Shown here in pieces: positions 2,516-14,713 of a stretch of 64,000 nucleotides of DNA. Under the pieces are notes generated by a model that made no database searches, was not told the origin of the DNA, and saw nothing but the letters and a program-made list of their open reading frames with translations. Both the position numbers and the translations under genes were made by a program. Source of the DNA: Terriglobia bacterium (GTDB taxonomy: Bacteria; Acidobacteriota; Terriglobia; 20CM-2-55-15). Each line of letters starts with the position of its first letter. Position 1 is the stretch's first letter. The stretch is from assembly GCA_965218585.1 (NCBI GenBank), contig CBDCLE010000001.1, positions 96,001-160,000 on the forward strand. Direction: 5' to 3'.

Positions 2516-2977
2516 ATGTCAGATGTTTCTGTTCCCGATCATCTCCCGGACTGGATAAAAGACCACCTCCGTCGATACCTTGAGAGCGATGGGGCCGACG
2601 GGTACTTCTGGGACTCTTCGGTTGCGGGTGGTCCCGGACCTCTTGCGACGCTTCTGTTGACGACTACGGGCCGGAAATCCGGGCAGCCCCGTATTCTTCC
2701 CTTACTCTTCGGGGAAGCTGATGGTAACTACGCGATCGTAGCGTCGAAGGGTGGAGCTCCGTCGCATCCGGGCTGGTATCTGAACCTTGCGGCCGAACCG
2801 GATGTCGAAGTACAGATCAAAGAGAAGCGGTTCCGGGCAAAGGCCCGGACGTCGACTGGAGAAGAGCGATCGAAGCTCTGGAACCAGATGGTTGGCATCT
2901 ATCCTCCGTATGCGGACTATCAGAAGAAGACCGATCGCGAGATTCCTGTCGTTGTTCTGGAGCCGGCCGAAGATTGA
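2516..2977 (+). CDS. Deazaflavin (F420)-dependent nitroreductase/quinone reductase, Ddn family
   Basis: LLLTTTGRKSGQPR, ASKGGAPSHPGWYLNL, YADYQKKTDREIPVV; RBS AAGGAG. Confidence 0.92.
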   Translation: MSDVSVPDHLPDWIKDHLRRYLESDGADGYFWDSSVAGGPGPLATLLLTTTGRKSGQPRILPLLFGEADGNYAIVASKGGAPSHPGWYLNLAAEPDVEVQIKEKRFRAKARTSTGEERSKLWNQMVGIYPPYADYQKKTDREIPVVVLEPAED

Positions 2978-3243: not shown

Positions 3244-4263
3244 ATGAAAATCCGAGTGTTTGATAACGACATCGAACTGCCGGACTTCGAACCGCCAAGG
3301 TTCAGATCCGGCCCGGTTCTGATGATCGTCGCGGTCATTTTCGGGCTGGCAATGCTCTGGGGGACGTTGTACCAGATCGCGCCGGAAGAGGCGGGCGTGG
3401 TGCTCCGTCTCGGGCGCTACGATCGGACGACGGATCCCGGTCTCCGCTTCAAGATCCCCCTTGTCGAACAAGTTCAGAAAGTGCCGGTCGAACGGCAGCT
3501 CAAGCAGGAGTTCGGCTTCCGGACCGTCACCGCTGGAGTTCAGAGTAATTTCACCACCGCGGGCCTGGACGATGAGTCGCTGATGTTGACCGGCGACCTG
3601 AACGTAGCCGTCGTGGAGTGGATCGTCCAGTATCGTGTGGCCGACGCCTACAACTACCTCTTCAAGGTACGGAATGTCGAAGACACATTCCGTGACATGA
3701 ACGAAGCCGTAATGCGAGAAGTCGTGGGTGATCGCACGGTGACCGAGGTGCTCACGATTGGAAGGCAGGATATCGAGGTCACTGCGCAGATCAGGCTTCA
3801 GGAGCTGTGCGATCGGTATGAGAACGGGATCCGTATCGAGCAGGTTGTGCTGCAAGACGTCAACCCACCGGACCCGGTTAAGCCTTCCTGGGACGAAGTG
3901 AACCAGGCCCAGCAGCAACGAGACAGGCTGATCAACGAAGCGCTGACCGATTACAACAGCGTCATTCCCAGGGCCCGAGGCGAAGCCGAACAGGTGATTC
4001 TTCAGGCGGAAGGATACGCCGTGAACCGGGTCAATCGAGCAGAGGGCGACGCGGCCCGCTTTGTGTCCGTTTATGACGAGTATCGCCAGGCTCCTGACGT
4101 GACTCGCCAACGGATGTACCTGGAGACCATGTCGACGATGATGGCCCGCGTTCCGGGAAAGGTGATTCTGGATAGCAACGCGCAGGGCATCCTTCCGTTG
4201 CTCCCCCTCGATGGCATTGGCAACCGACTGACAGGCTCCGCTGCGGGCCAAGGAGGCAACTGA
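3244..4263 (+). CDS. hflK: FtsH protease modulator HflK
   Basis: SPFH domain; MLTGDLN, DVNPPDPV, IPRARGEA, APDVTRQRMYLETM. Confidence 0.95.
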   Translation: MKIRVFDNDIELPDFEPPRFRSGPVLMIVAVIFGLAMLWGTLYQIAPEEAGVVLRLGRYDRTTDPGLRFKIPLVEQVQKVPVERQLKQEFGFRTVTAGVQSNFTTAGLDDESLMLTGDLNVAVVEWIVQYRVADAYNYLFKVRNVEDTFRDMNEAVMREVVGDRTVTEVLTIGRQDIEVTAQIRLQELCDRYENGIRIEQVVLQDVNPPDPVKPSWDEVNQAQQQRDRLINEALTDYNSVIPRARGEAEQVILQAEGYAVNRVNRAEGDAARFVSVYDEYRQAPDVTRQRMYLETMSTMMARVPGKVILDSNAQGILPLLPLDGIGNRLTGSAAGQGGN

Positions 4264-5201
4264 TGTTAGGCATGGCCAAAGTTCCACTTTTGATTTCGGC
4301 CGGTATTGTTGTACTGATTCTCCTGGTCAACGGACTCTACATTGTTGACGAAACCGAACAGGTGATCGTCACCCAATTCGGGCAACCCGTCGGTGACGCT
4401 GTCACGACGCCCGGACTGAAGGTCAAGATACCGTTGATCCAGGTGGCCAACTACTTCGACAAGCGCTTTCTGGAGTGGGACGGTGATCCGAATCAGGTGC
4501 CGACACGCGACAAACGGTTCGTCTGGGTGGATGCATATGCACGCTGGCGGATCAGTAACCCACTGACGTACCTGGAAAGACTCCGCGGGGATGAGAACAC
4601 GGCCCAGTCGCGTCTGGACGACATTCTGGATGGGGAAACCCGCAACGCTATTGCACGGAATGATCTGCTCCAGGTCGTTCGGACCGTGAACCGTCAACCC
4701 GACACCGTCGAAGGCGATCAGGAGGAAACCGGAGTCCTGGACCCGATCGAAACCGGGAGGTCCGACATCACGGCGGATATCCGGGAGACGGCTGCGCCAC
4801 GACTGGAGGAGCTGGGAATCGAACTCGTCGACTTTCAGCTCAAGCGGATCAACTATGTCGCAGAAGTGCAGCAGGATGTGTTCGCGCGAATGATCGCCGA
4901 ACGGCAGCGAATCGCGCAGCAGTACCGTTCAGAAGGTGAAGGAGAGGCGGCCCGCATCAGGGGCGAGAGGGAGCGCGACCTTCAGGCTATCCAGTCGGAA
5001 GCCTATCGGCAGGCCCAGGAAACTCAGGGCGTGGCCGACGGCGAAGCCACACGCATTTACGCTGATGCCTACACTCGCGACGGTTCTTTCTATGCGTTCA
5101 TGAAGAGCATGGAGACGTTCGAGACGGCGATCGATCCCAATACGCTTTTGGTTCTGACCACAGACGGGGAGTTGTTTCAGTATCTCAACGAACCTCAATA
5201 A
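4263..5201 (+). CDS. hflC: FtsH protease modulator HflC
   Basis: IVTQFGQP, FDKRFLEWD, RMIAERQRIAQQYRSEGEGEA; start overlaps the hflK stop. Confidence 0.95.
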   Translation: MLGMAKVPLLISAGIVVLILLVNGLYIVDETEQVIVTQFGQPVGDAVTTPGLKVKIPLIQVANYFDKRFLEWDGDPNQVPTRDKRFVWVDAYARWRISNPLTYLERLRGDENTAQSRLDDILDGETRNAIARNDLLQVVRTVNRQPDTVEGDQEETGVLDPIETGRSDITADIRETAAPRLEELGIELVDFQLKRINYVAEVQQDVFARMIAERQRIAQQYRSEGEGEAARIRGERERDLQAIQSEAYRQAQETQGVADGEATRIYADAYTRDGSFYAFMKSMETFETAIDPNTLLVLTTDGELFQYLNEPQ

Positions 5202-5431
5202 CGGTCGGTAGGGGGTCGTATATAGATCAGCAATGGGCGAAGAGATCGATGTGACGGTAACGCCGGTTGTCGGGAGTTTAGACTTTGATTACGTCTAGTT
5301 CCCTGTGGCAGTACTCCGAGGAGATGTATGGGTTCGCTGCGTGCCGACCCGATGTCGAAGGGGTCTCACTCCTGAATCGGAGGGGGTGATACAATGACGT
5401 AAAACGTGTAACAACCTATTAGGAGGCAGAT

Positions 5432-6283
5432 ATGCTGAGACCAAGAGCTATTTGCGGCGGATTCGTCACTCTCCTTTTCGTTTTGGCAACGATTCCGGTT
5501 GCCGAGGGCCAGGAAGCATTGGTCGCTCCAGCGGAATGGACGGATGCCGAAAAGGAAAGTTTCCTTCAGAATGCTGAACTCCTCTCGATCGAAGACATCG
5601 GCATCGGATCCACTGACGCTCAACGCACGACCCTGAGCGACGGCAGCTTCACGCATGACGCTCAGATCCAGGCTGTCGATATATTTCGGCGCGGCATAAC
5701 GCAACTGGATGGCGCAGTCGAGGTCAATTTCAGGGACAGTTACAAGTTCAACATTGCAGGATACCGTCTGGACCGATTGCTCGGCCTCAACATGGTTCCG
5801 GTATCCGTAGAGCGAAGAGTGCGACGCGAACCAGCGGCTGTGACATGGTGGGTGGACGACGTTCAGATGATGGAGCTGGACCGTTTGAACAACGGGATCG
5901 AACCTCCCGATGTCGAGGCGTGGAACGATCAGATGAGCACGTGTCGGATTTTCACCGAGCTGATTTACAACACCGACGCCAACCTCGGAAACTTCCTGAT
6001 CACCAGCGACTGGCAACTCCACCTCATCGACTTCACGCGCGCATTCCGGCTGTTCGATAGCCTTCGAGAGCCCGAAAACGTCACGCCACGCATCGAACGA
6101 CACTTCTACGAAGGTCTTCAGGGGCTGGATAAGGAGCGCCTCGAGGAGGTTATGGAGGGACTGCTGGGCGGCAGCGAGATCGACGGCATTCTCTCTCGGC
6201 GGGATGTCATTCTGGAGATTCTGGACACGCACATCGCTGAGAAAGGCGAGGCCGCGGTCGTTTACGACGTGGCCGGGCAGTGA
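5432..6283 (+). CDS. Secreted atypical kinase-fold protein (Fam20C/Four-jointed/PI3-PI4K-like)
   Basis: Sec-type signal peptide; NIAGYRLDRLLGLNMVPVSVER, FTELIYNTDANLGN (catalytic D, N), LIDFTRAF (metal-binding D); RBS AGGAGG. Confidence 0.7.
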   Translation: MLRPRAICGGFVTLLFVLATIPVAEGQEALVAPAEWTDAEKESFLQNAELLSIEDIGIGSTDAQRTTLSDGSFTHDAQIQAVDIFRRGITQLDGAVEVNFRDSYKFNIAGYRLDRLLGLNMVPVSVERRVRREPAAVTWWVDDVQMMELDRLNNGIEPPDVEAWNDQMSTCRIFTELIYNTDANLGNFLITSDWQLHLIDFTRAFRLFDSLREPENVTPRIERHFYEGLQGLDKERLEEVMEGLLGGSEIDGILSRRDVILEILDTHIAEKGEAAVVYDVAGQ

Positions 6284-6289
6284 GGTGGT

Positions 6290-7579
6290 TTGACGGAGCC
6301 ACACATGCGCCGCGCTAAGCCGGGTCTCGAAATCGGAACGTTGCTTCTGGCGACCACCCTCACGCTGGTTCCGCTATCCCTGGTTTGGAGCCAGGACACC
6401 GACCGAATTCTTGTGATGGCTGACATCCACGGTGACTTTGCGGCGGCAACCGCCATGCTCGAGCGGACGGGCATCGTGGATGACGAACTCGGTTGGATGG
6501 GCAGCGACGCGACGTTCGTGCAAACGGGAGACTCTACCGATCGAGGGCCTGAAGTCCGGCGCGTGCTGGATCTTCTGATGTCGCTGGACCGGGACGCCCC
6601 TGACGACCAGGTGGTTGTCCTCCTGGGCAATCACGAGCATTCAAACATCATTGGGAACCTGGTCGACGTGACGGGGGCCGACTATGAGAGTTTTGCCGAT
6701 TCGGAGTCCGAGAGTCGCCGGCAGGAGGCTTTCCTGGAATTCGTCGATTACCAGGAGCGACGCGCTGAAAGGCTCGGGAGCGAGCCCATGGCCCCAACAG
6801 CAGAATCCGAGCAAGCCTGGATGGACGCACATCCTCTAGGTTTCATAGAACACCGGGAAGCGTTTGGTCCCGACGGCGAATATGGTCGGTGGCTTCGCGA
6901 CCGACCCACGGTGGCAAAGCTGGGCGAAACGCTATTCCTCCACGCAGGAATCTCTCCCGCGCTCGCCGAGCTTTCGATCGATGAGATCAATGCCCGAGTT
7001 CGTGACGAGATTCGTGCCTTCGATCAGTCTTTCCAGTATCTGGTCTCCAGGGGGATGGCACTGCCTTTTTTCACTCTTCAGGAACTACTCGAGGCAGCGC
7101 GCGAGGCGCTTGAGGTCCTGAACGGGACGACCGATCCGGAAAAACGCGATTCAGAAGAGCAACGCGACGTTCAAGTCATGGGGGGTCTGTTAAGTCTCGG
7201 AGGCTGGTTGACGATTCACCCTGAAGGCGTTCTCTGGTACAGGGGATACAACAACTGGTCCGACGAGGAGGGAGCAGTCCAGATCGAACAGTTGCTCGAA
7301 CGCTACGACGTCGAACACATCGTTGTCGGCCACACACCCCAGCTTCCGGCCCAGATTCGAGTCCGTTTCGGTGGAAGCCTCTACCTGGCAGATACGGGGA
7401 TGCTTTCGAGCTACTACCGGGGAGGGCGCGCCTCGATGTTGGAGATCCGGGGTGACGTCTTTCGTGCCATCTACCTGGATGAAGGTGCGCGGCTAATCGA
7501 GCCACCTCGAGTGGGCAGTGTACCTATCCCGTTTGGGCCAGCCGCTCGCTCTCCACTCACATCGATCCCGGCACCCTAA
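6290..7579 (+). CDS. Secreted metallophosphoesterase, Shewanella-like PPP phosphatase type
   Basis: DIHGD, GDSTDRG, GNHE, HAG, GHT, ADTG motifs; N-terminal hydrophobic signal. Confidence 0.88.
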   Translation: MTEPHMRRAKPGLEIGTLLLATTLTLVPLSLVWSQDTDRILVMADIHGDFAAATAMLERTGIVDDELGWMGSDATFVQTGDSTDRGPEVRRVLDLLMSLDRDAPDDQVVVLLGNHEHSNIIGNLVDVTGADYESFADSESESRRQEAFLEFVDYQERRAERLGSEPMAPTAESEQAWMDAHPLGFIEHREAFGPDGEYGRWLRDRPTVAKLGETLFLHAGISPALAELSIDEINARVRDEIRAFDQSFQYLVSRGMALPFFTLQELLEAAREALEVLNGTTDPEKRDSEEQRDVQVMGGLLSLGGWLTIHPEGVLWYRGYNNWSDEEGAVQIEQLLERYDVEHIVVGHTPQLPAQIRVRFGGSLYLADTGMLSSYYRGGRASMLEIRGDVFRAIYLDEGARLIEPPRVGSVPIPFGPAARSPLTSIPAP

Positions 7580-7588
7580 CCCCCATCC

Positions 7589-10342
7589 ATGTCCCACTGG
7601 ATCGAGCGTCTCCTGAATCTGCGGCGGGGAGAACTTCCTGGCGGACTCCTGTTCTTCGCGTACTACTTTCTGATCATATCGTCCTATGTCGTCGGCCAGG
7701 TCGCCCGTGACGCCCTGTTTCTCGATCGCTTCGCGGCCGATCAGTTGCCATACGTCGACGTGGCGATAGCTGCGACTGTAGGTCTGGTCGTGGCGGCCTA
7801 TATCCGGGCTGGGCGCTGGGTCAAACTGCGGGAGTTGCTGACGGGAGCGTTAGGCCTTTTCGCGGCCATGGCCCTGTTTTTCTGGTGGGGGGTTCGGACC
7901 GTTCAATGGGCCTGGCTGTTCCCGGCTCTCTATATCTGGATCGGAATCTTTGGTGTTCTGGCAATCGCTCAGGTCTGGACCCTGGCGAATTTCATGCTGA
8001 CAACTCGCGAAGCCAAAAGGGTGTTTGGACTTGTCGGCGCCGGCGGAATCCTGGGCGGCATCTTTGGGGGATTCCTCTCCGTTGGAATAGCGCGCAACCT
8101 CGGCACCGAGAGTCTCTTGCTTGTGGTCGCAACGTTCCCTGCAATCTGCATGATGCTCGTGAGGTGGATCTGGCGGCGAGAGGGCAAGGAGGCTGGCTTT
8201 GGAGTCGAGCACAAGGCAACAGGTCTGGAGAGTTCCTGGAGTCTTTCAGGGACTCTTCAAATCATCCGTTCTTCTGCCCAGCTGAAATCCATAGCAATGC
8301 TCATCTGCATCACCTCGATCGTTACCACCGCGGCGGGCTGGCAGTTCAAGGCGATTGCTAAGGAAACCATCATCGAAACCGACGCGCTGGCTGCATTTCT
8401 GGGTTCTTTTCAAGGCTAACGCGGGGATTCTGTCGCTCGTGGCACAACTCCTATTGACAACCAGGGTGCTGCAACGATTCGGTGTGGGTTCTGCTCTGTT
8501 TATCCTTCCTGTCGCTCTGGTTCTGGGTAGTGCGGGTGTTCTCGTCTTCGGGGGCGTAGCGGCCGTGGTTGCGTTCAAGGGGAGCGATAAGGTCTTGCGC
8601 TATTCGATCGACACCTCGGCACTTCAGCTGCTCTACCTGCCAGTGCCGACCGGTATCAAGGTCCAGGTCAAATCTTTCATCGATACAGTCGTCTTGCGCC
8701 TTGGTGACGGTCTGGCAGGAGTTACGTTGCTGGTCTTCGTGACATATCTTCAGTTCACTCCCCGACAAGTGGCCTGGATCAATCTCATTGGTCTCGTGGC
8801 CTGGCTTTTCGTTGCGAACCGTGCGCGGCGACAGTACCTTGCGACTCTCGGCGAACGCGTTCAGGAACACCGGATCGACATCGAGCGCACGTCGGTTCCG
8901 GTTCTTGATCGATCCACAACTTCTATTCTGGCCACCAAACTCGATTCCGGCGATTCCCAGGAGATCCTTTACGGACTCCGCCTGTTCGAGCTCGGCGATC
9001 ACCGCACCGCTCATCCTTCGATCCAGGGCCGCATACGGCACGATTCTCCGGAGGTCCGGGCCAAGGCCGTGGCGATTCTAAACACCACGGGCAACCTGGC
9101 GGTGAACGATGAGATCGAAGAACTGCTCAACGATGGTGATCTGGGTGTGCGCACGGAAGCTCTGTTGTACTTGACGCAGCATACCGACATCGACCCCCTG
9201 GCTCGGATCCGCGAGTTGGGAGACTTTCCGGATTTCACGATTCGGTCGGCGATCGTGGCTTTCCTGAGTCAACCTGGAAACGCCCAGAACCTGGCGGTCG
9301 CAGAACTCATGCTGGACATGATGTTGGACGAGACAGGGCCAGCTGGACGGCTTACCCGGCTGGAGGCTGGACGGCTGATTGGACTCCTACCCGATGCCTT
9401 CGAAAACCAGGTGTCGAGGCTTCTGGCAGATCCCGATCCGGAAATTGCCCGCTATGGAATATCCGCGGCCGGAAACCTCCGTCGGCCGAAGTTCGTCTCT
9501 GCATTGCTGGACCGGCTGGGCGATCCCAACAATGTTCAGGAAGCGGCAACCGCGCTTGGAAACTTCGGAGATCGGATCGTAGGTACGCTGGGCGACTACG
9601 TGAAAGATCCCGAAGTTTCTATTGCCGTTCGCCTTGAAATTCCAGCAGTGCTTGCCAAAATCGGCGCACCCGGCGTTCAGGAGTCATTGGCCGAGTGCCT
9701 TCTGGAGGGAAACACGACGCTTCGCCACCGGATCCTTTCAGCAATGAACAAGTACCAGCAATCGAACCCGCAGGTCAGCATCGATCCGCAATGGATCGAA
9801 ACAGTTCTGGCCGCCAAAATCCTGGGGCATTACCGTTCCTACCAGGCTCTGGACTTACTTGGCGGCGCGTTGGAGGGGAGCGACCCATCGCTGGCAGCGC
9901 TCACCGAATCCATGGGTCATGAACGGGAGCGGATTTTCCGTCTGCTGGCAATTTTTTTCCGGAACACGACATGCACGCGGCCTACCTGGCACTCGATTCG
10001 ACGAACTCTCGAATGCGCGACAACACGCTGGAGTTCCTCGACAACATGCTACGCCCTGAACTGCGCTCTCTGCTTATCCCGCTCGTCGACGATGGTGTAA
10101 CCGTCCAAGATCGGGTTCGACTCGCCAATGATGTCGTGGGCACGGGTGTGGAAACATCGGAGGAAGCTGTCGCGATGTTGATGCACACTGGCGATCCCTG
10201 GTTGAAATCATGTGCTGCCTACGCCATCGGTGCACTGGGGCTGAAGTCGCTCGAAAGCGAAATGGACACTTGGCAAGACGACCAGGATCCGCTCCTGGCG
10301 GAAGCCGTCCGACAGGCAAAACTGCGGCTGGCCAAGATCTAA
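7589..10342 (+). CDS. NTT/TLC (Npt1/Npt2-like) nucleotide translocase-family MFS protein with C-terminal HEAT repeats; two frameshifts (~8416, ~9955)
   Basis: ARDALFL, QVWTLAN..TREAKRVFGLVGAGGILGG, RYSID..LQLLYLPVP..K.FID..RLGDG; HEAT repeats (DPEVR/DLGVR/DPWL) across three overlapping ORFs (7589-8419, 8355-10100, 9971-10342). Confidence 0.8.
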
Positions 10343-10354
10343 GGACGTACGCTT

Positions 10355-10747
10355 ATGGACCGGGAGAACTTTTCCAGTGGAACGCCATGGGAACACCTGG
10401 CCAGCTATTCGCGTGCGGTTCGAGTGGGCAATCAGGTCTGGGTATCGGGTACAACGGCAACCGACGAGAAGGGTGAGATCGTCGGGACTGGCGACGCCTA
10501 CGCTCAGACTATCCAGGCGCTGAAGAACATCGAATCTGGCCTGGGACAGGCTGGCGCGAGTCTCCGTGATGTGGTTCGCACGAGAATGTATGTCGTGAAT
10601 ATCAAGTCGGATTGGGAGAAGGTGGCCCAGGCTCACAAGGAAGTGTTCAGAGAGATCAGGCCGACAACAGCCATGGTCGAGGTTAGTGGTTTGATCGATC
10701 CGTCCATGCTCGTTGAGATCGAGGTGGACGCTGTCATTGTTGACTGA
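10355..10747 (+). CDS. RidA/YjgF/UK114 family protein
   Basis: [31 protein letters not shown]. Confidence 0.92.
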
Positions 10748-11025
10748 AGGCGTGCGGTTAAGCCGGCTCTTCCCCCTGCGCTACGACCGCGGTCCAGGAG
10801 TGATCTCTGCAGGTGAAGCTGTCGGCTAAGACGAACGCAGCGAAGCTAACCCAAGGGGTGTGACGCTGCTCGCGTCTGCACGCGTCGCATGGGAGGAAAC
10901 CACCGCACATGGTGCAGACGAGCATATTACCCATACCGGCAGCAGCGGCGGCTGTGGGGCGAACAGGGGTTCATGCTTGGCTTAGAGAAGCTGTTCTGCA
11001 CCAAGGCAAAACAGGAGAAAATACA

Positions 11026-13347
11026 ATGAAAACATCATGCGCATCGTAGTCCTTGTTGTGGCATCAAGTAGCATTGTTCTAGCCCGCATATTTCACCGAT
11101 AGGACCAGAAAAGGCCGCCCTGTCTGGCATAAAGCGTTTTGAAATAAACGTTTAACAAGCCAAACGGAGACGGCCCTTATGAGAACAGAGTGTAACCAAA
11201 CGACGTTCGAATTTCACGGACTTCTTCAACGAAAAGTGAAGGCGCGTTTTGACGGCGGAAAGATCATCTCCGACGCTGGGGTTCTGCTGTTGAGGGAAGT
11301 GGAAAAGCGAACGGGTCTGATCGCCGGACTGGCCGAGTGTTTCAGGGATTACCGGGACGCGAGGTTGATCGAACACACGGTGAGCGAGTTATTGGGGCAG
11401 CGCGTCTACGGACTCTGTCTGGGCTACGAGGATCTGAACGATCATGACCAACTGCGGACCGATCCGATGCTGGCCGTGGCGGTGGATAAGGCCGATCCAC
11501 TGGGGGAGAAGCGGCGGCAGGCCCGAGACCGGGGAAAAGCGTTGGCGGGCAAGTGTACGCTGAACCGGTTGGAACTGACCGGGGAGCAAGTCGATGGGAA
11601 GGAGCGGTACAAGAAGATTGCCATGGACCCGGACAAGATCGACCGCTGGATGGTGGATGCATTTGTGGCGGCTCACGGATCGGCGCCCGAGGAGATTGTT
11701 CTGGACCTGGATGCGACCGATGATCCGATCCATGGCCATCAGGAAGGACGGTTCTTTCACGGCTACTATGGCAACTACTGTTATCTGCCGCTCTACATCT
11801 TTTCGGGAGAGCATCTGCTATGCGCCCGGTTGCGGTGCTCCAATGTCGACGGTGCGGACGGCGCCGTCGAGGAATTGAACCGCATCATCGGCCAGATCCG
11901 GCAGAGCTGGCCGGAGGTGTCGATTATCATCCGGGCCGACTCGGGCTTTTGCCGGGATGAATTGCTGAGTTGGTGCGAGGCCCACCAGGTCGATTACGTG
12001 GTGGGTCTGGCCAAGAACGATCGGCTCAAGCGCGAGATCGCTGAATCGATGAGTCAGGCCGAAGCCGAGTTTAACGACACCGGGAAACCGGCGCGGGTGT
12101 TTAACGATTTCCGGTATCGCACTCGGAAGAGCTGGACCTGCACCCGACGCGTCATCGGCAAGGCCGAGTTCCTGGAGAAAGGCGCCAATCCTCGATTCGT
12201 TGTGACCTCACTGTCGCCGGAACGCCTGGACGCCCGCGCCCTCTATGAAGACTTTTACTGTGCGCGGGGCGACATGGAAAATCGCATCAAGGAACAGCAG
12301 TTGGATCTATTCGCCGACCGGACCAGCGCGGCAACCATGCGCGCCAATCAACTCCGGCTCTATCTGTCCTCGGCCGCCTACATGCTCCTGCACGCGTTAC
12401 GCCGTCTGGGACTGAAGAATACCGATCTGGCCCGCGCTCAGTGCCAGACGATCCGCTTGAAGCTCCTCAAGATCGGAGCTCAAGTCCGTCTGACGGTTCG
12501 CAACATCTGGATCTCCATGTCGGAAGCCTATCCCTACGCCGAGGTCTTTGCCCTCGTCCATCGAAACCTGCAGGCGCTTCCTCTGCGCTGCTGAGAACCG
12601 ACCCGATCCCCTGCGCCAAAATCGACTCGCTCTTTTCGGCTCCGCCGAGGTTTGTCTCAGTGCGTTTCGTCACCCTCTTCTGAACCCGAAAACGCAGCAA
12701 CTCCCGCTTGTCGACACCGCCGAGTCACGCCACACATGCCCAATTCGAACCCAGATCCTCCCGAATCCGATTCTTACTGCCCAAATCCCCCTGATCGCCG
12801 GACTGGTGAAACATGCGGGCTAGGCGTTCACCCCACGATGGCCCAGGACTGGGGGCAAGACCGATCCATCGATCAGCTATCAGAAAGCGTATATCGCTGG
12901 GGTTCTCGCGGCGAGAATAGTGCGTTCATCGTGACGTCCGAGGGGATTATCGTCATCGACGGTAGTCCGTGCGCGTCGGGGGACACCGAATGGATCAAGG
13001 GCGAGCTCGACCAGCGATACGATGTTCCTGTCAAACTCGTCGTACTAAGCCATGACCATGCGAGTCACATCTGTGGGACGGAAATATTCAGTGACACAGC
13101 CATGACGATAAGCCACCGCCAAACTTCGGCCGCATATTCTCAGAGAGAGTCGCGCTTCAGCCGTGCCGAATATCACGTTTGAAGATTCCATGGACATTCA
13201 TCTGGGTGGGCTCAAGGTGGTCTTGATCTATAACGGCCCGACTCATAGCGATAACCTGATCCAGGTTCATATTCCGGAGGAGGGAGTCCTTATTGCGGTG
13301 GACCTGTCGCGTGCTGGAAGGAGTCTGGTATTTCCGGATTTTCGTGA
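11026..13347 (+). pseudogene. Secreted MBL-fold metallo-hydrolase, split by IS1380 and truncated by IS256
   Basis: Signal peptide MRIVVLVVASSSIVL (11037-11082) rejoins GVHPTMAQ (12824 onward) in frame once the IS is removed; SHDHASH and THSDN motifs; frameshift ~13120; ends at the IS256 boundary. Confidence 0.8.
11083..12819 (+). mobile_element. IS1380-family element, apparently intact (transposase 11179-12594)
   Basis: FDGGKIISDAG, LDLDATDD, RADSGF, YCARGDMENRIKE; 15-bp IRs CCCGCAT(A/G)TTTCACC; CTAG duplicated at 11079-11082 and 12820-12823. Confidence 0.95.
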
Positions 13348-14713
13348 GAGGTCATTACAAAAGGTGTGTAAAAGTCATCAGGCGGCGGCCTTCGATTTCA
13401 TCACGACTCTGATGCCGTCAGCGAATTGCTGGCCATCATAGACCTCTTGTAAGAGTTCGGATCCTTTTAAGTGTCGCCAAGCCTTCTCAGCGACACGTAG
13501 TAGCTTCCAGATCATTGCCGTTGCATTCTCGACACGCTTGAATCGGCGAGCGGCGTTGGTGCGGAGGCGAACCATGTCGAAGGGCGATTCGACGATGTTG
13601 GTCGTTCTAAGATGCACCCAGTGTTGTTTCGGGAACTCATAGAAAGTAATCATCCGGTCCCAGTCCCGCAAACAGCGTCTCACCCGCTTTGGGATAGTTC
13701 TTCTCATATCGGCGGACGAACTGATCCCGCTTTCGTTCGCAGGCCGCGCGGGAGTTCGCGAAGGCCATCCCATGAAGCAGCTGTCTGGCCGCGGGCTGCT
13801 CGGTCTTCGGCAGATGATCGACCACGTTGATCGACTTGTGGTTCCAGCAGCGTTGTTCCTGGCCCTGGGGCTGTTGCTCGGCCAGCGCGGACCAGATGCC
13901 CAGGTGACCGTCCGCGACAGTCAGTCGTCCCAGCTTCAGGCCCCGTCTCTGGAGATTGCGCAGAATGCGGCTCCAGGACTCCTTGCTTTCCCGCTGCCCG
14001 CTCTCACAGGCCAACAGCACTTTGCGCCCGTCTGACAAGGCTCCGATGATCACCAGCAATGCCGCTCGCTCTTTCGCGATCCCCGCTTTCACGTACAAGC
14101 CGTCTGCCCACTGGTACACGACCTCGAGGCCGGACAGGTCCTGCTGGACCCACTCGTCATACTCCAACTGCCAGGTCGATTTCAGTCGTTGGATCGATGC
14201 TCGCGACAACGGAGCGCCAGCGCCAAGCAGTCCGCGCATGGCCTGCTCGAAGTCCCCTGTGGCCAGACCGTGGAGGTAGAGATCGGGAAGTAGCTCGCCC
14301 AGCTGTTTCGATTTCCGTCGAAAATACGGCAGGATCTGACTCTCGAACCGCTCGGCGGTGTTTCGAACCCGAGGTCGTCGAACCTCCATCGTACCGTTCA
14401 TCATTGCGAAGCGTCGCGGCTTCCCGTGACCGTTCCGGTATCCTCGTCGATTCGGACTCCGCTCCGACTTTTCCCGACCCAGAAATTGAGTGACTTCGTC
14501 CTCGAGCAGCTCCTGTAGCCAGACTTGGACCCGGGATCGCGCCCAGTCCTCCAAACCTTCATACGCGTTCGTTGACGCCACTGATGCCGGTATGTTCTTC
14601 TTCTTCATGGGTGGTGTACCTTTCTCCCGGTTGCTGCCGGGATTGCTTAGGGTTTCGGATTCACCGAAAGCGTACACCGCCTTCTCTTTTTACACACCGA
14701 TTGGAACGACCTC
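13348..14713 (-). mobile_element. IS256-family element, copy 2 (+1 frameshift ~13670; no matching target duplication)
   Basis: Near-identical to copy 1 with the same IRs; flanks TTTCGTGA / TCCTTCTC do not match. Confidence 0.95.

Follow-up and report, generated by a model that had tools for sequence, protein, structure and literature searches.

Secretory kinases of the endoplasmic reticulum (ER) and Golgi lumen are supplied by SLC35B1/AXER, the ER exchanger of adenosine triphosphate and diphosphate (ATP/ADP). The bacterial periplasm is regarded by textbooks as free of ATP and, to our knowledge, no ATP-dependent protein kinase system has been described there. The FAM20 cluster is treated as specific to eukaryotes or to Metazoa in the available part of a kinome survey (PMC9758233). 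Carriers of the NTT-HEAT and NTT-HEAT-cNBD types (cNBD, cyclic nucleotide-binding domain) were described by Major, Embley and Williams in 2017; the portion of their article that was available states that the function of these carriers is unknown and mentions no link of NTT-HEAT to exported kinases or phosphatases (PMC5381601). The locus analysed here belongs to a soil-type Acidobacteriota bacterium (Terriglobia, assembly GCA_965218585.1) and lies in a window of 64,000 nucleotides, namely positions 96,001 to 160,000 of the forward strand of contig CBDCLE010000001.1. At positions 5432-10342 of this window, three genes, all on the + strand, encode an exported kinase-like protein (P0001), an exported phosphatase (P0002) and a carrier of the NTT/TLC family. 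A preliminary description of this DNA had proposed that the carrier exports ATP, or recycles ADP, for a kinase and a phosphatase acting in the periplasm as writer and eraser. As a whole, this functional interpretation is partly supported.

The evidence leans towards these three genes being one copy of a conserved bacterial module that acts outside the cytoplasmic membrane. The trio suggests, without proving, a nucleotide-driven phosphorylation outside the cytoplasm. The strongest facts are the fold of the kinase-like protein, the export signals, the "Rosetta-stone" fusion of phosphatase and kinase found in many relatives, and a neighbouring gene of the TLC family that is retained in different phyla, in different gene orders, on either strand and with or without the HEAT domain. 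The outcomes named in the preliminary description as fatal to its proposal were looked for and none occurred: a kinase fold, export signals and co-occurrence of the genes in other genomes were all found.

A Fam20-like fold in an unnamed bacterial family

For P0001, Pfam gives only a sub-threshold match to ABC1 and NCBIfam a sub-threshold match to SCO1664, with no match to the Fam20C family PF06702 (gathering threshold 26.8 bits) at E up to 0.01. With PF06702, 17.1 bits were obtained for the fused relative P0132, below this cut-off, and fused relatives also have sub-threshold Pfam matches to PI3_PI4_kinase and HipA_2. The profile of A1, an alignment of 39 members of the window-type kinase family, matched only FAM20A, Fam20B and FAM20C among 177,635 PDB sequences, the best being FAM20A (E 1.4e-4). 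The AlphaFold2 (AF2) model computed on A1 has a pLDDT of 86.5, falling below 50 only at residues 1-27, and a pTM of 0.83. When this model was submitted to Foldseek, ranks 1-25 were all Fam20 chains (best E 7.4e-9, TMq 0.61-0.65), type II phosphatidylinositol 4-kinases (PI4KII) coming next. With VIA-align, it reaches Z 19.1-21.2 against Fam20 (root-mean-square deviation 3.0-4.3 Å, 234-246 residues aligned), 16.6-17.4 against PI4KII, 15-15.5 against H. pylori CtkA, 11.5 against CotH and 10-11.3 against HipA. Because sequence profile and fold both match Fam20, the Fam20C/Four-jointed-like identity initially given to this gene from short motifs is confirmed, Fam20 being the closest of the three groups (Fam20C, CotH and HipA) with which a structural comparison had been proposed.

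The family is large and unnamed. Of 2525 candidates of comparable length, 1470 match it at E up to 1e-3, and almost all of these are annotated as "hypothetical" and have about 280 residues. In the genome collection, it is found almost entirely in Acidobacteriota, often with several copies per genome, while P0001 is the only member in the window genome. Three copies (L014, L029, L032) lie on contigs of one metagenome-assembled genome (MAG) labelled Acidimicrobiia (Actinomycetota), which may reflect mis-binning or gene transfer.

Two kinds of kinase domain

Relatives of P0001 also occur fused to a phosphatase, and the two classes differ at the residues expected to make a kinase active. In the fused class (alignment A2, 32 sequences), the motifs of the PPP-family phosphatase are intact and the kinase part displays an invariant K450 in A-x-F-K, mostly E or D before AAY, then D551-R-N-x-x-N556 and I-D570-H. 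The A3 profile, built from 24 kinase domains of this class, matches Fam20B (5XOM, E 2e-10), FAM20A (2.7e-9) and FAM20C (1.9e-7) in the PDB, and the alignments span the beta-3 Lys, the E-AAY-LDR helix (alpha-C), the FDxLIxNxDR catalytic loop and the DFG-like Asp. Across the 39 sequences of A1, the invariant residues are H75, D76, Q80, D102, N107, D114, R115, N180, D182, N184, N187, D200 and R203. A profile-profile alignment of A1 with A2 (hhalign, probability 100, E 3e-57) places Q80 on K450, N107 on the Glu, D182 on D551, A183 on R552, N187 on N556 and D200 on D570. D182, N187 and D200, which are the Asp of the catalytic loop, the Asn that binds metal and the DFG-like Asp, are thus retained in the window-type family. 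The doubts raised beforehand about this protein, i.e., a Gln at the beta-3 Lys position and DA in place of DR, proved justified, and the replacement goes further than had been noticed, as the alpha-C Glu is also lost throughout the clade. Two fusions of class-level relatives, located beside TLC-HEAT genes (L084:3890-4765 and L085:3848-4777), present a third state, with an Arg at the beta-3 position (AAFR or AIFR).

Among the 184 kinase domains of all fetched loci, the alpha-C position is occupied by N in 82, E in 71 and D in 19. Almost all E/D-type domains (84 of 90) are fused to a phosphatase, two more adjoin one, and 42 have a TLC gene within 5 kb; 68 of the 82 N-type domains have no partner in their locus, and because selection differed between the locus sets, these figures apply to the sample and not to nature. 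FastTree groups the N-type rows in a single clade of 91 (SH-like support 98), which is nested within the E/D-type fusions and in which the window kinase and its three same-genus orthologs are found together (support 100). The window kinase is a member of a derived Acidobacteriota clade with Gln-Asn replacing Lys-Glu, the status of "derived" being provisional because the root of the tree is a midpoint only.

This protein may be a non-canonical or a non-catalytic kinase, and it is uncertain whether it transfers phosphate. According to one alternative, which appears fairly unlikely, the Gln/Asn domain transfers no phosphate; it recognises a ligand in the periplasm, be it a nucleotide or some phosphorylated molecule, and has a regulatory or receptor role like that of Fam20A towards Fam20C, while phosphatase and carrier set the level of the ligand. 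The replacement of the ion pair by Q80 and N107 in 39 of 39 aligned members, the nesting of the clade among K/E-type fusions, the solitary state of most N-type paralogs and the pseudokinase FAM20A as best single PDB match of the clade profile would all fit such a role. So would the layout of five of the 13 longer relatives of P0001 (P0127-P0131), which consist of a Hanks Ser/Thr kinase, a transmembrane helix and a Fam20-like domain. Judging from this arrangement, the Gln/Asn-type domain is the predicted extracellular part of receptor kinases, and P0127 and P0130 put it outside the membrane on Hanks kinases. However, D182, N187 and D200 are invariant and accompanied by new invariant residues, H75 and D76, near Q80. 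Furthermore, the window genome has no K/E-type partner that a pseudokinase could regulate, and PPP and TLC-HEAT neighbours are retained in several separate sub-clades of the N-type.

Export of the two soluble proteins

The signal peptides attributed to the kinase-like protein and to the phosphatase in the preliminary description are borne out by their hydropathy profiles. Both N-termini have a short charged stretch followed by a hydrophobic one (12-residue maxima of 2.57 for P0001 and 2.09 for P0002), and the hydropathy scan found no later membrane-like segment in either protein. A hydrophobic N-terminus is present in 117 of 121 members of the kinase family, the other four looking truncated at this end, and a Tat-like RR-x-hydrophobic motif in 15 of the 121 (e.g., P0031, P0078 and P0096). 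Signal peptides are also found at the N-termini of the phosphatase-kinase fusions. All these export calls are predictions from hydropathy. Export of the family is further supported by the receptor-like proteins, since the order Hanks kinase, transmembrane helix and additional domain is the usual layout of extracellular receptors.

The phosphatase and its fusions with the kinase

The assignment of P0002 to Shewanella-like enzymes of the PPP family held good. It matches Pfam Metallophos with 48.6 bits (cut-off 21.5), and its closest solved relatives are the Shewanella cold-active protein-tyrosine phosphatase (1V73, 2Z72, 2ZBM; E about 1e-24), followed by the Rhizobiales-like phosphatase 5VJV (E 5e-7). 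The motifs ADIHGD, GDSTDRG and GNHEH (of the GDxHG, GDxxDRG and GNHE types) and the later His ligands H218 and H348 are present. The metal ligands of the PPP family (D45, H47, D81, R85, N114, H115, H218 and H348) do not vary among 18 homologs, linked or fused. P0002 also has weak NCBIfam matches to nucleotide hydrolases such as ApaH (E 1.5e-5).

Fusions between kinase and phosphatase, whose search had been suggested, turned out to be abundant. In searches made without selection for long frames, Metallophos is carried by eight of the 13 longer relatives of P0001. The kinase part of the fusion P0132 matches at least 356 proteins among 8000 candidates scored, and among the matches listed, 108 of 120 contain Metallophos (PF00149); the few that are named come from Acidobacteriota, Steroidobacteraceae, other Gammaproteobacteria and Parahaliea mediterranea. 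When 1.84 billion proteins were searched with the A3 profile, 7642 cluster representatives matched with E up to 1e-3, of which 1125 with E up to 1e-30; of the best 150, 86 have a domain beginning no earlier than residue 200, and in 51 it stands alone. Sixteen loci (L084-L099) were picked for a kinase match in a long open frame, so that their fusion rate is biased; eight of them (L084, L085, L086, L087, L089, L090, L092, L093) hold one-frame fusions with the phosphatase first, each with a signal peptide, and a TLC-HEAT gene adjoins in L084, L085, L086, L088, L092, L093 and L097.

The same association is seen in metagenomes. A TLC gene accompanies the fusion in 32 of 80 metagenome loci, in 25 cases within 600 nucleotides, and the count is 22 of 33 when at least 1.5 kb is available on both sides. 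This TLC neighbour is usually a protein of about 480 residues without HEAT domain (Pfam TLC, 41.7 bits). Other recurrent neighbours of the fusions are a regulator of the Crp type that binds cyclic nucleotide monophosphates (cNMP; 10 loci), a TPR protein (10 loci) and a CHASE2 cyclase (4 loci).

Structure predictions were obtained for both states of the pair. The AF2 model of the whole fusion P0132 has a pLDDT of 87.8 and a pTM of 0.65, with a low-confidence linker at 396-400, and the relative placement of the domains is not firm. Complex prediction with the split kinase and phosphatase scored 0.45, against 0.09 for the best of three controls, the runs agreeing in at least 80% of contacts and the pLDDT of the partner being at least 88. 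This is weak support, since 58 of 80 solved complexes reach the mark used, as do 2 of 110 mismatched pairs, but only 7 of the 80, and both mismatches, do so with scores up to 0.60.

Linkage of the three genes across genomes

Co-occurrence in other genomes, for which a neighbourhood analysis had been recommended, was found in several gene orders. Three of the four other genomes of the genus carry the kinase gene, and all three then carry the phosphatase gene and an uninterrupted TLC-HEAT gene; the window kinase-like and phosphatase genes share 72-93% identity with orthologs. The genes for HflK, HflC and RidA, which flank the module in the window, were not found beside two of the three same-genus clusters (tblastn, E 1e-5). 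In one MAG of the genus (L002:7001-9175), the stop codon between kinase and phosphatase is missing, giving a frame of 724 residues in which the signal-like hydrophobic stretch of the phosphatase lies in mid-protein. The order kinase-phosphatase is there opposite to that of the common fusions, and the missing stop may be a mutation or an assembly error.

In a first set of 79 genome loci, retrieved with patterns drawn from A1 and searched for partners within 7 kb, one locus has all three genes (L002), seven have kinase and TLC-HEAT (L026, L035, L037, L039, L041, L044, L059) and five have kinase and phosphatase (L015, L038, L042, L056, L069). Most of the seven have a histidine-kinase gene between the two and an open reading frame (ORF) for a cNMP-binding protein after them. 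For example, the Bryobacterales/Solibacteraceae loci L026, L035, L039, L041 and L044 display the order kinase-like gene, histidine kinase on the opposite strand and TLC-HEAT gene. In L035, L039 and L044, a cNMP-binding ORF of 140 residues follows TLC-HEAT and precedes two further ORFs related to histidine kinases. Cyclic-nucleotide control seems to run through the module.

At the scale of 401 Acidobacteriota genomes, the kinase family is found in 102 and TLC-HEAT in 179 (G077 included), TLC-HEAT being present in 101 of the 102 genomes with the kinase versus 78 of the 299 without it, in counts that are uncorrected for shared ancestry. Among the matches listed (150 of 287 and 150 of 299 places), kinase and TLC-HEAT lie within 10 kb of each other in at least 18 genomes of at least 12 families, and within 4 kb in 17 of these genomes; their order and orientation vary. 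According to our own arithmetic (few copies of each, a genome of 5 Mb), such closeness would be expected by chance in about 2% of genomes. A mere co-location of co-regulated envelope functions, with a TLC-type carrier that moves another solute and no nucleotide shared by the three proteins, is very improbable. In its favour, the available part of PMC5381601 reports no NTT-HEAT protein of known substrate, and the Pfam TLC matches are modest (24.8 bits for the window carrier and 41.7 bits for the neighbour of the fusions). However, the genes stay linked when their order, strand or fusion state differs, in different phyla and when HEAT is lost, and the carrier is specifically related to ATP/ADP carriers of known structure.

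The carrier and its two frameshifts

The third gene was rightly taken for an NTT/TLC-family carrier with HEAT repeats. Its N-terminal piece (P0003) matches Pfam TLC (PF03219) with 24.8 bits (cut-off 21) and its middle piece matches HEAT_2 (E 8.8e-22, 77.6 bits); the Pfam search found no cNMP-binding domain in it, as had been stated. In the same-genus orthologs, TLC and HEAT form one continuous frame of 919 residues. The intact ortholog of L002 matches the structure of the plastid carrier NTT1 (9J3J, E 1.6e-11) at residues 108-442, and its C-terminal half matches designed HEAT-like repeat proteins. A crude hydropathy scan, which misses weaker segments, detects nine clear transmembrane segments in residues 1-415 of the ortholog, about 12 being usual in the family.

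The window carrier is 70-78% identical to the L002 ortholog across three consecutive frames, and the two frameshifts noticed at first are indeed in the window. They do not have the same standing. At the first site, the three same-genus orthologs are one base shorter, and the sole independent contig that bridges it (a Logan contig of 3414 nucleotides from run X1) is without one letter at 8418. This frameshift is thus probably an assembly error or a minor variant. At the second site, the contigs of runs X1, X2 and X3, from two studies, are identical to the window, which indicates that the frameshift is genuine, while the contig of X4, about 93% identical, is one letter longer. It lies near the end of the HEAT domain, beyond the membrane domain and most HEAT repeats. 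The heptamer T_TTT_TTC stands in register there, and a -1 slip on it would yield a product of the orthologs' frame and length. A simple scan found a weak terminator-like hairpin immediately ahead of this T7 run.

The module might also be on its way to being lost in the window strain, the kinase-like and phosphatase genes being remnants in a region rich in insertion sequences (IS) and the carrier being broken. This is possible, though rather unlikely. It would account for the T7 frameshift in contigs of three runs and two studies, for IS256 and IS1380 transposase genes flanking the region and for the truncation at 296 residues of the second TLC-like ORF of the genome. This ORF, which matches Pfam TLC with 34 bits and up to position 361 of the 491 in the profile, is located on contig 26 of G000 (L183:4409-7898), directly after a Hanks Ser/Thr kinase with TPR repeats. 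The loss of the module is opposed by the intact state of the kinase-like and phosphatase genes, at 72-93% identity to their orthologs, by the lack of the first frameshift in the independent contig and by the location of the second one, where a slip could restore the usual length.

Layout of the locus and surroundings

The features of the module and of its surroundings are given in Table 1. The intergenic gaps of 6 and 9 bp initially reported are correct for the longest ORFs, i.e., with the phosphatase starting at TTG; the ATG start, preceded by GGAG, is as likely. A scan of 5100-10900 for promoters and terminators gave one promoter-like and one terminator-like site, no more than in shuffled sequences. 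The region of the module is rich in IS, with two transposase genes of the IS256 family (407 residues and a shorter copy of 346) and one of the IS1380 family. Beside them lies a fragment with weak similarity to the metallo-beta-lactamase fold. The product of another ORF is assigned to the F420H2-dependent quinone reductase family (Pfam E 6e-43), which is better known from Actinomycetota.

Table 1. Features of the three-gene module and of its surroundings (window coordinates)
Feature	Position	Strand	Remarks
IS256 / IS1380 transposase genes	1153-2376, 11179-12594, 13637-14677		
F420H2-dependent quinone reductase family ORF	2516-2977		
hflK and hflC	3244-5201		upstream neighbours
Shine-Dalgarno AGGAGG	5421..5426	+	5 nt upstream of the ATG of the kinase-like gene; read from the sequence
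Exported Fam20-like kinase-fold protein (P0001)	5432..6283	+	283 aa; Gln/Asn (N-type) clade; predicted signal peptide about residues 1-26
Exported Shewanella-like PPP-family phosphatase (P0002)	6290..7579	+	429 aa from TTG 6290; 424 aa from ATG 6305
Carrier gene	7589-10342	+	readable in three frames only: 7589-8419, 8355-10100, 9971-10342
TLC/NTT membrane domain of carrier	7589..8870	+	frame broken at 8417-8419 in window
Frameshift site 1, GGCTAA	8414..8419	+	one extra A vs three same-genus orthologs
HEAT-repeat domain of carrier	8925..10342	+	cytoplasmic by homology; without cNMP-binding domain
Terminator-like hairpin	9928-9946		weak
Frameshift site 2, T7 run	9952..9958	+	one base short of the orthologs' frame; T_TTT_TTC in register
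RidA-family gene	10355-10747		downstream neighbour
Metallo-beta-lactamase-fold fragment	12652-13182		176 aa

A proposed mechanism

If the three genes work together outside the cytoplasm, the carrier would be an inner-membrane transporter of a nucleotide, in the simplest case exporting ATP in return for ADP (plus phosphate). With this nucleotide as donor, the exported protein of kinase fold would phosphorylate a target of the periplasm or envelope, which could be a protein, a glycan or a lipid. Glycan and lipid targets both occur in this fold group, as for Fam20B and PI4KII. The phosphatase would reverse or complete the modification, and the HEAT domain, joined in other genomes by a cNMP-binding partner, would gate the flux from the cell interior. 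In the ancestral and commonest form, phosphatase and kinase would be one exported polypeptide with the full K/E/D/N/D signature. The window kinase, with its catalytic-loop Asp, metal-binding Asn and DFG-like Asp, would bind nucleotide in a non-canonical way. Gene linkage and family membership are the basis for proposing that the carrier exports ATP or recycles ADP for the soluble pair, and this pair could work as writer and eraser instead of acting one after the other. Since a kinase that is exported and has a complete signature needs a donor outside the cytoplasm, and since its only recurrent membrane partner belongs to the single bacterial family known for ATP/ADP exchange, the supply of nucleotide by the carrier is the most economical explanation.

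Several observations weigh against such a phosphorylation module. In the window protein, and invariantly in the 39 sequences of A1, Q80 and N107 stand where active kinases have the Lys/Glu ion pair; as P0001 is moreover the sole family member of its genome, there is possibly no active kinase here. N-type domains are also found on the extracellular side of receptor kinases, where ligand sensors typically stand, and most N-type domains of the fetched loci have no partner. In the first locus set, neither partner was found within 7 kb in 66 of 79 loci. TLC-HEAT occurs in 78 of 299 kinase-free genomes, which means that the carrier is not dedicated to the kinase; shared ancestry could contribute to the genome counts, and the choice of the sixteen fusion loci to their fusion rate. 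The carrier of the window strain has a genuine frameshift and the only other TLC-like ORF of its genome is truncated. The Gln/Asn-type kinase, also used as a receptor domain, and the genuine frameshift together lower the odds of a working kinase system in the window. Finally, all characterised NTTs import nucleotides into parasites or plastids, according to the available part of PMC5381601.

This last point is also the starting point of an alternative in which the carrier imports nucleotides, while the exported enzymes process external nucleotides or organophosphates, feeding import or sensing extracellular ATP; the phosphatase would trim these molecules and the kinase-fold domain would bind or re-phosphorylate them. 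Such a system is quite improbable here. It would agree with the characterised NTTs, which are importers or exchangers serving uptake in the part of that article available, with a PPP fold that includes nucleotide hydrolases such as ApaH (the weak NCBIfam matches mentioned above) and with the cNMP regulators and CHASE2 cyclase that recur near the fused genes. However, among solved structures, the phosphatase is closest to a protein-tyrosine phosphatase and not to a nucleotidase, and uptake alone does not explain an exported kinase with full signature, which needs an external phosphate donor. In addition, the hosts are free-living bacteria with large genomes (4.5-8.8 Mb), which would not be expected to depend on external ATP.

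Returning to the phosphorylation module, a broader scheme can be put forward tentatively, with less confidence than the existence of the module itself. Free-living Gram-negative bacteria could carry ATP into the periplasm through NTT/TLC exchangers and so drive a cycle of Fam20-type kinase and PPP phosphatase on envelope or secreted targets. The secretory Fam20 kinases of animals could descend from this exported bacterial family, of which the Gln/Asn clade could be a regulatory or sensor offshoot comparable to Fam20A. A conserved trio of exported kinase, exported phosphatase and nucleotide carrier would assign a role to NTT-HEAT and TLC carriers, which are widespread yet uncharacterised in free-living bacteria. 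Reversible phosphorylation would then reach the bacterial envelope, and the Fam20 kinases, so far regarded as eukaryotic, would have a bacterial relative obeying the same "luminal" logic. The module is directly testable, because fusions occur in named and probably culturable bacteria such as Parahaliea mediterranea.

Comparison with known systems

The literature search found no report on exported bacterial relatives of Fam20, on periplasmic kinase systems fed by a carrier, on the function of NTT-HEAT or on a link between kinase, phosphatase and carrier. The module thus seems unpublished, although its parts come from known superfamilies and the NTT-HEAT clade has already been described. What is new is the Gln/Asn clade and its position in the tree, the receptor-kinase fusions, the counts in genome samples and the read-level check of the two frameshifts.

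Fam20 kinases (the Golgi casein kinase Fam20C, the xylosylkinase Fam20B and the pseudokinase Fam20A) have the closest fold to the window kinase, with Z 19-21. They share with the bacterial family the E-x-AAY/F-x-LDR-x-LG helix, the DRxxxN-type catalytic loop, the DFG-like Asp, export to a compartment outside the cytosol and a sub-branch that has lost the ion-pair residues, as in Fam20A. However, the bacterial domain is shorter, with about 250 residues (350-390 in Fam20 chains of known structure). It frequently forms fusions with a PPP phosphatase and, in the clade of the window, has Gln/Asn for Lys/Glu. Type II PI4-kinases, H. pylori CtkA, CotH and HipA have the atypical kinase fold in common with it, at lower Z than Fam20, and we know of none that combines an N-terminal signal peptide with a PPP and TLC context.

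As for the phosphatase, the window protein differs from the Shewanella-like PPP enzymes (1V73/2Z72 and 5VJV) by a helical insert about 90 residues longer (429 versus 336-342 residues for the proteins) and by its link or fusion to a kinase domain. The window carrier has a TLC domain followed by HEAT repeats, like the NTT-HEAT carriers as presented in the available part of PMC5381601. In the Bryobacterales loci, a separate cNMP-binding ORF follows the carrier, as reported there for NTT-HEAT carriers, whereas the window carrier differs from the NTT-HEAT-cNBD type by the absence of the cNBD and by its frameshift. The exchanger of the ER, SLC35B1/AXER, belongs to a carrier family unrelated to NTT/TLC. 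By analogy, the bacterial module would nevertheless follow the same logic as the supply of ATP to the ER and Golgi lumen, i.e., a kinase in a compartment without ATP synthesis and a nucleotide exchanger in the membrane that bounds it.

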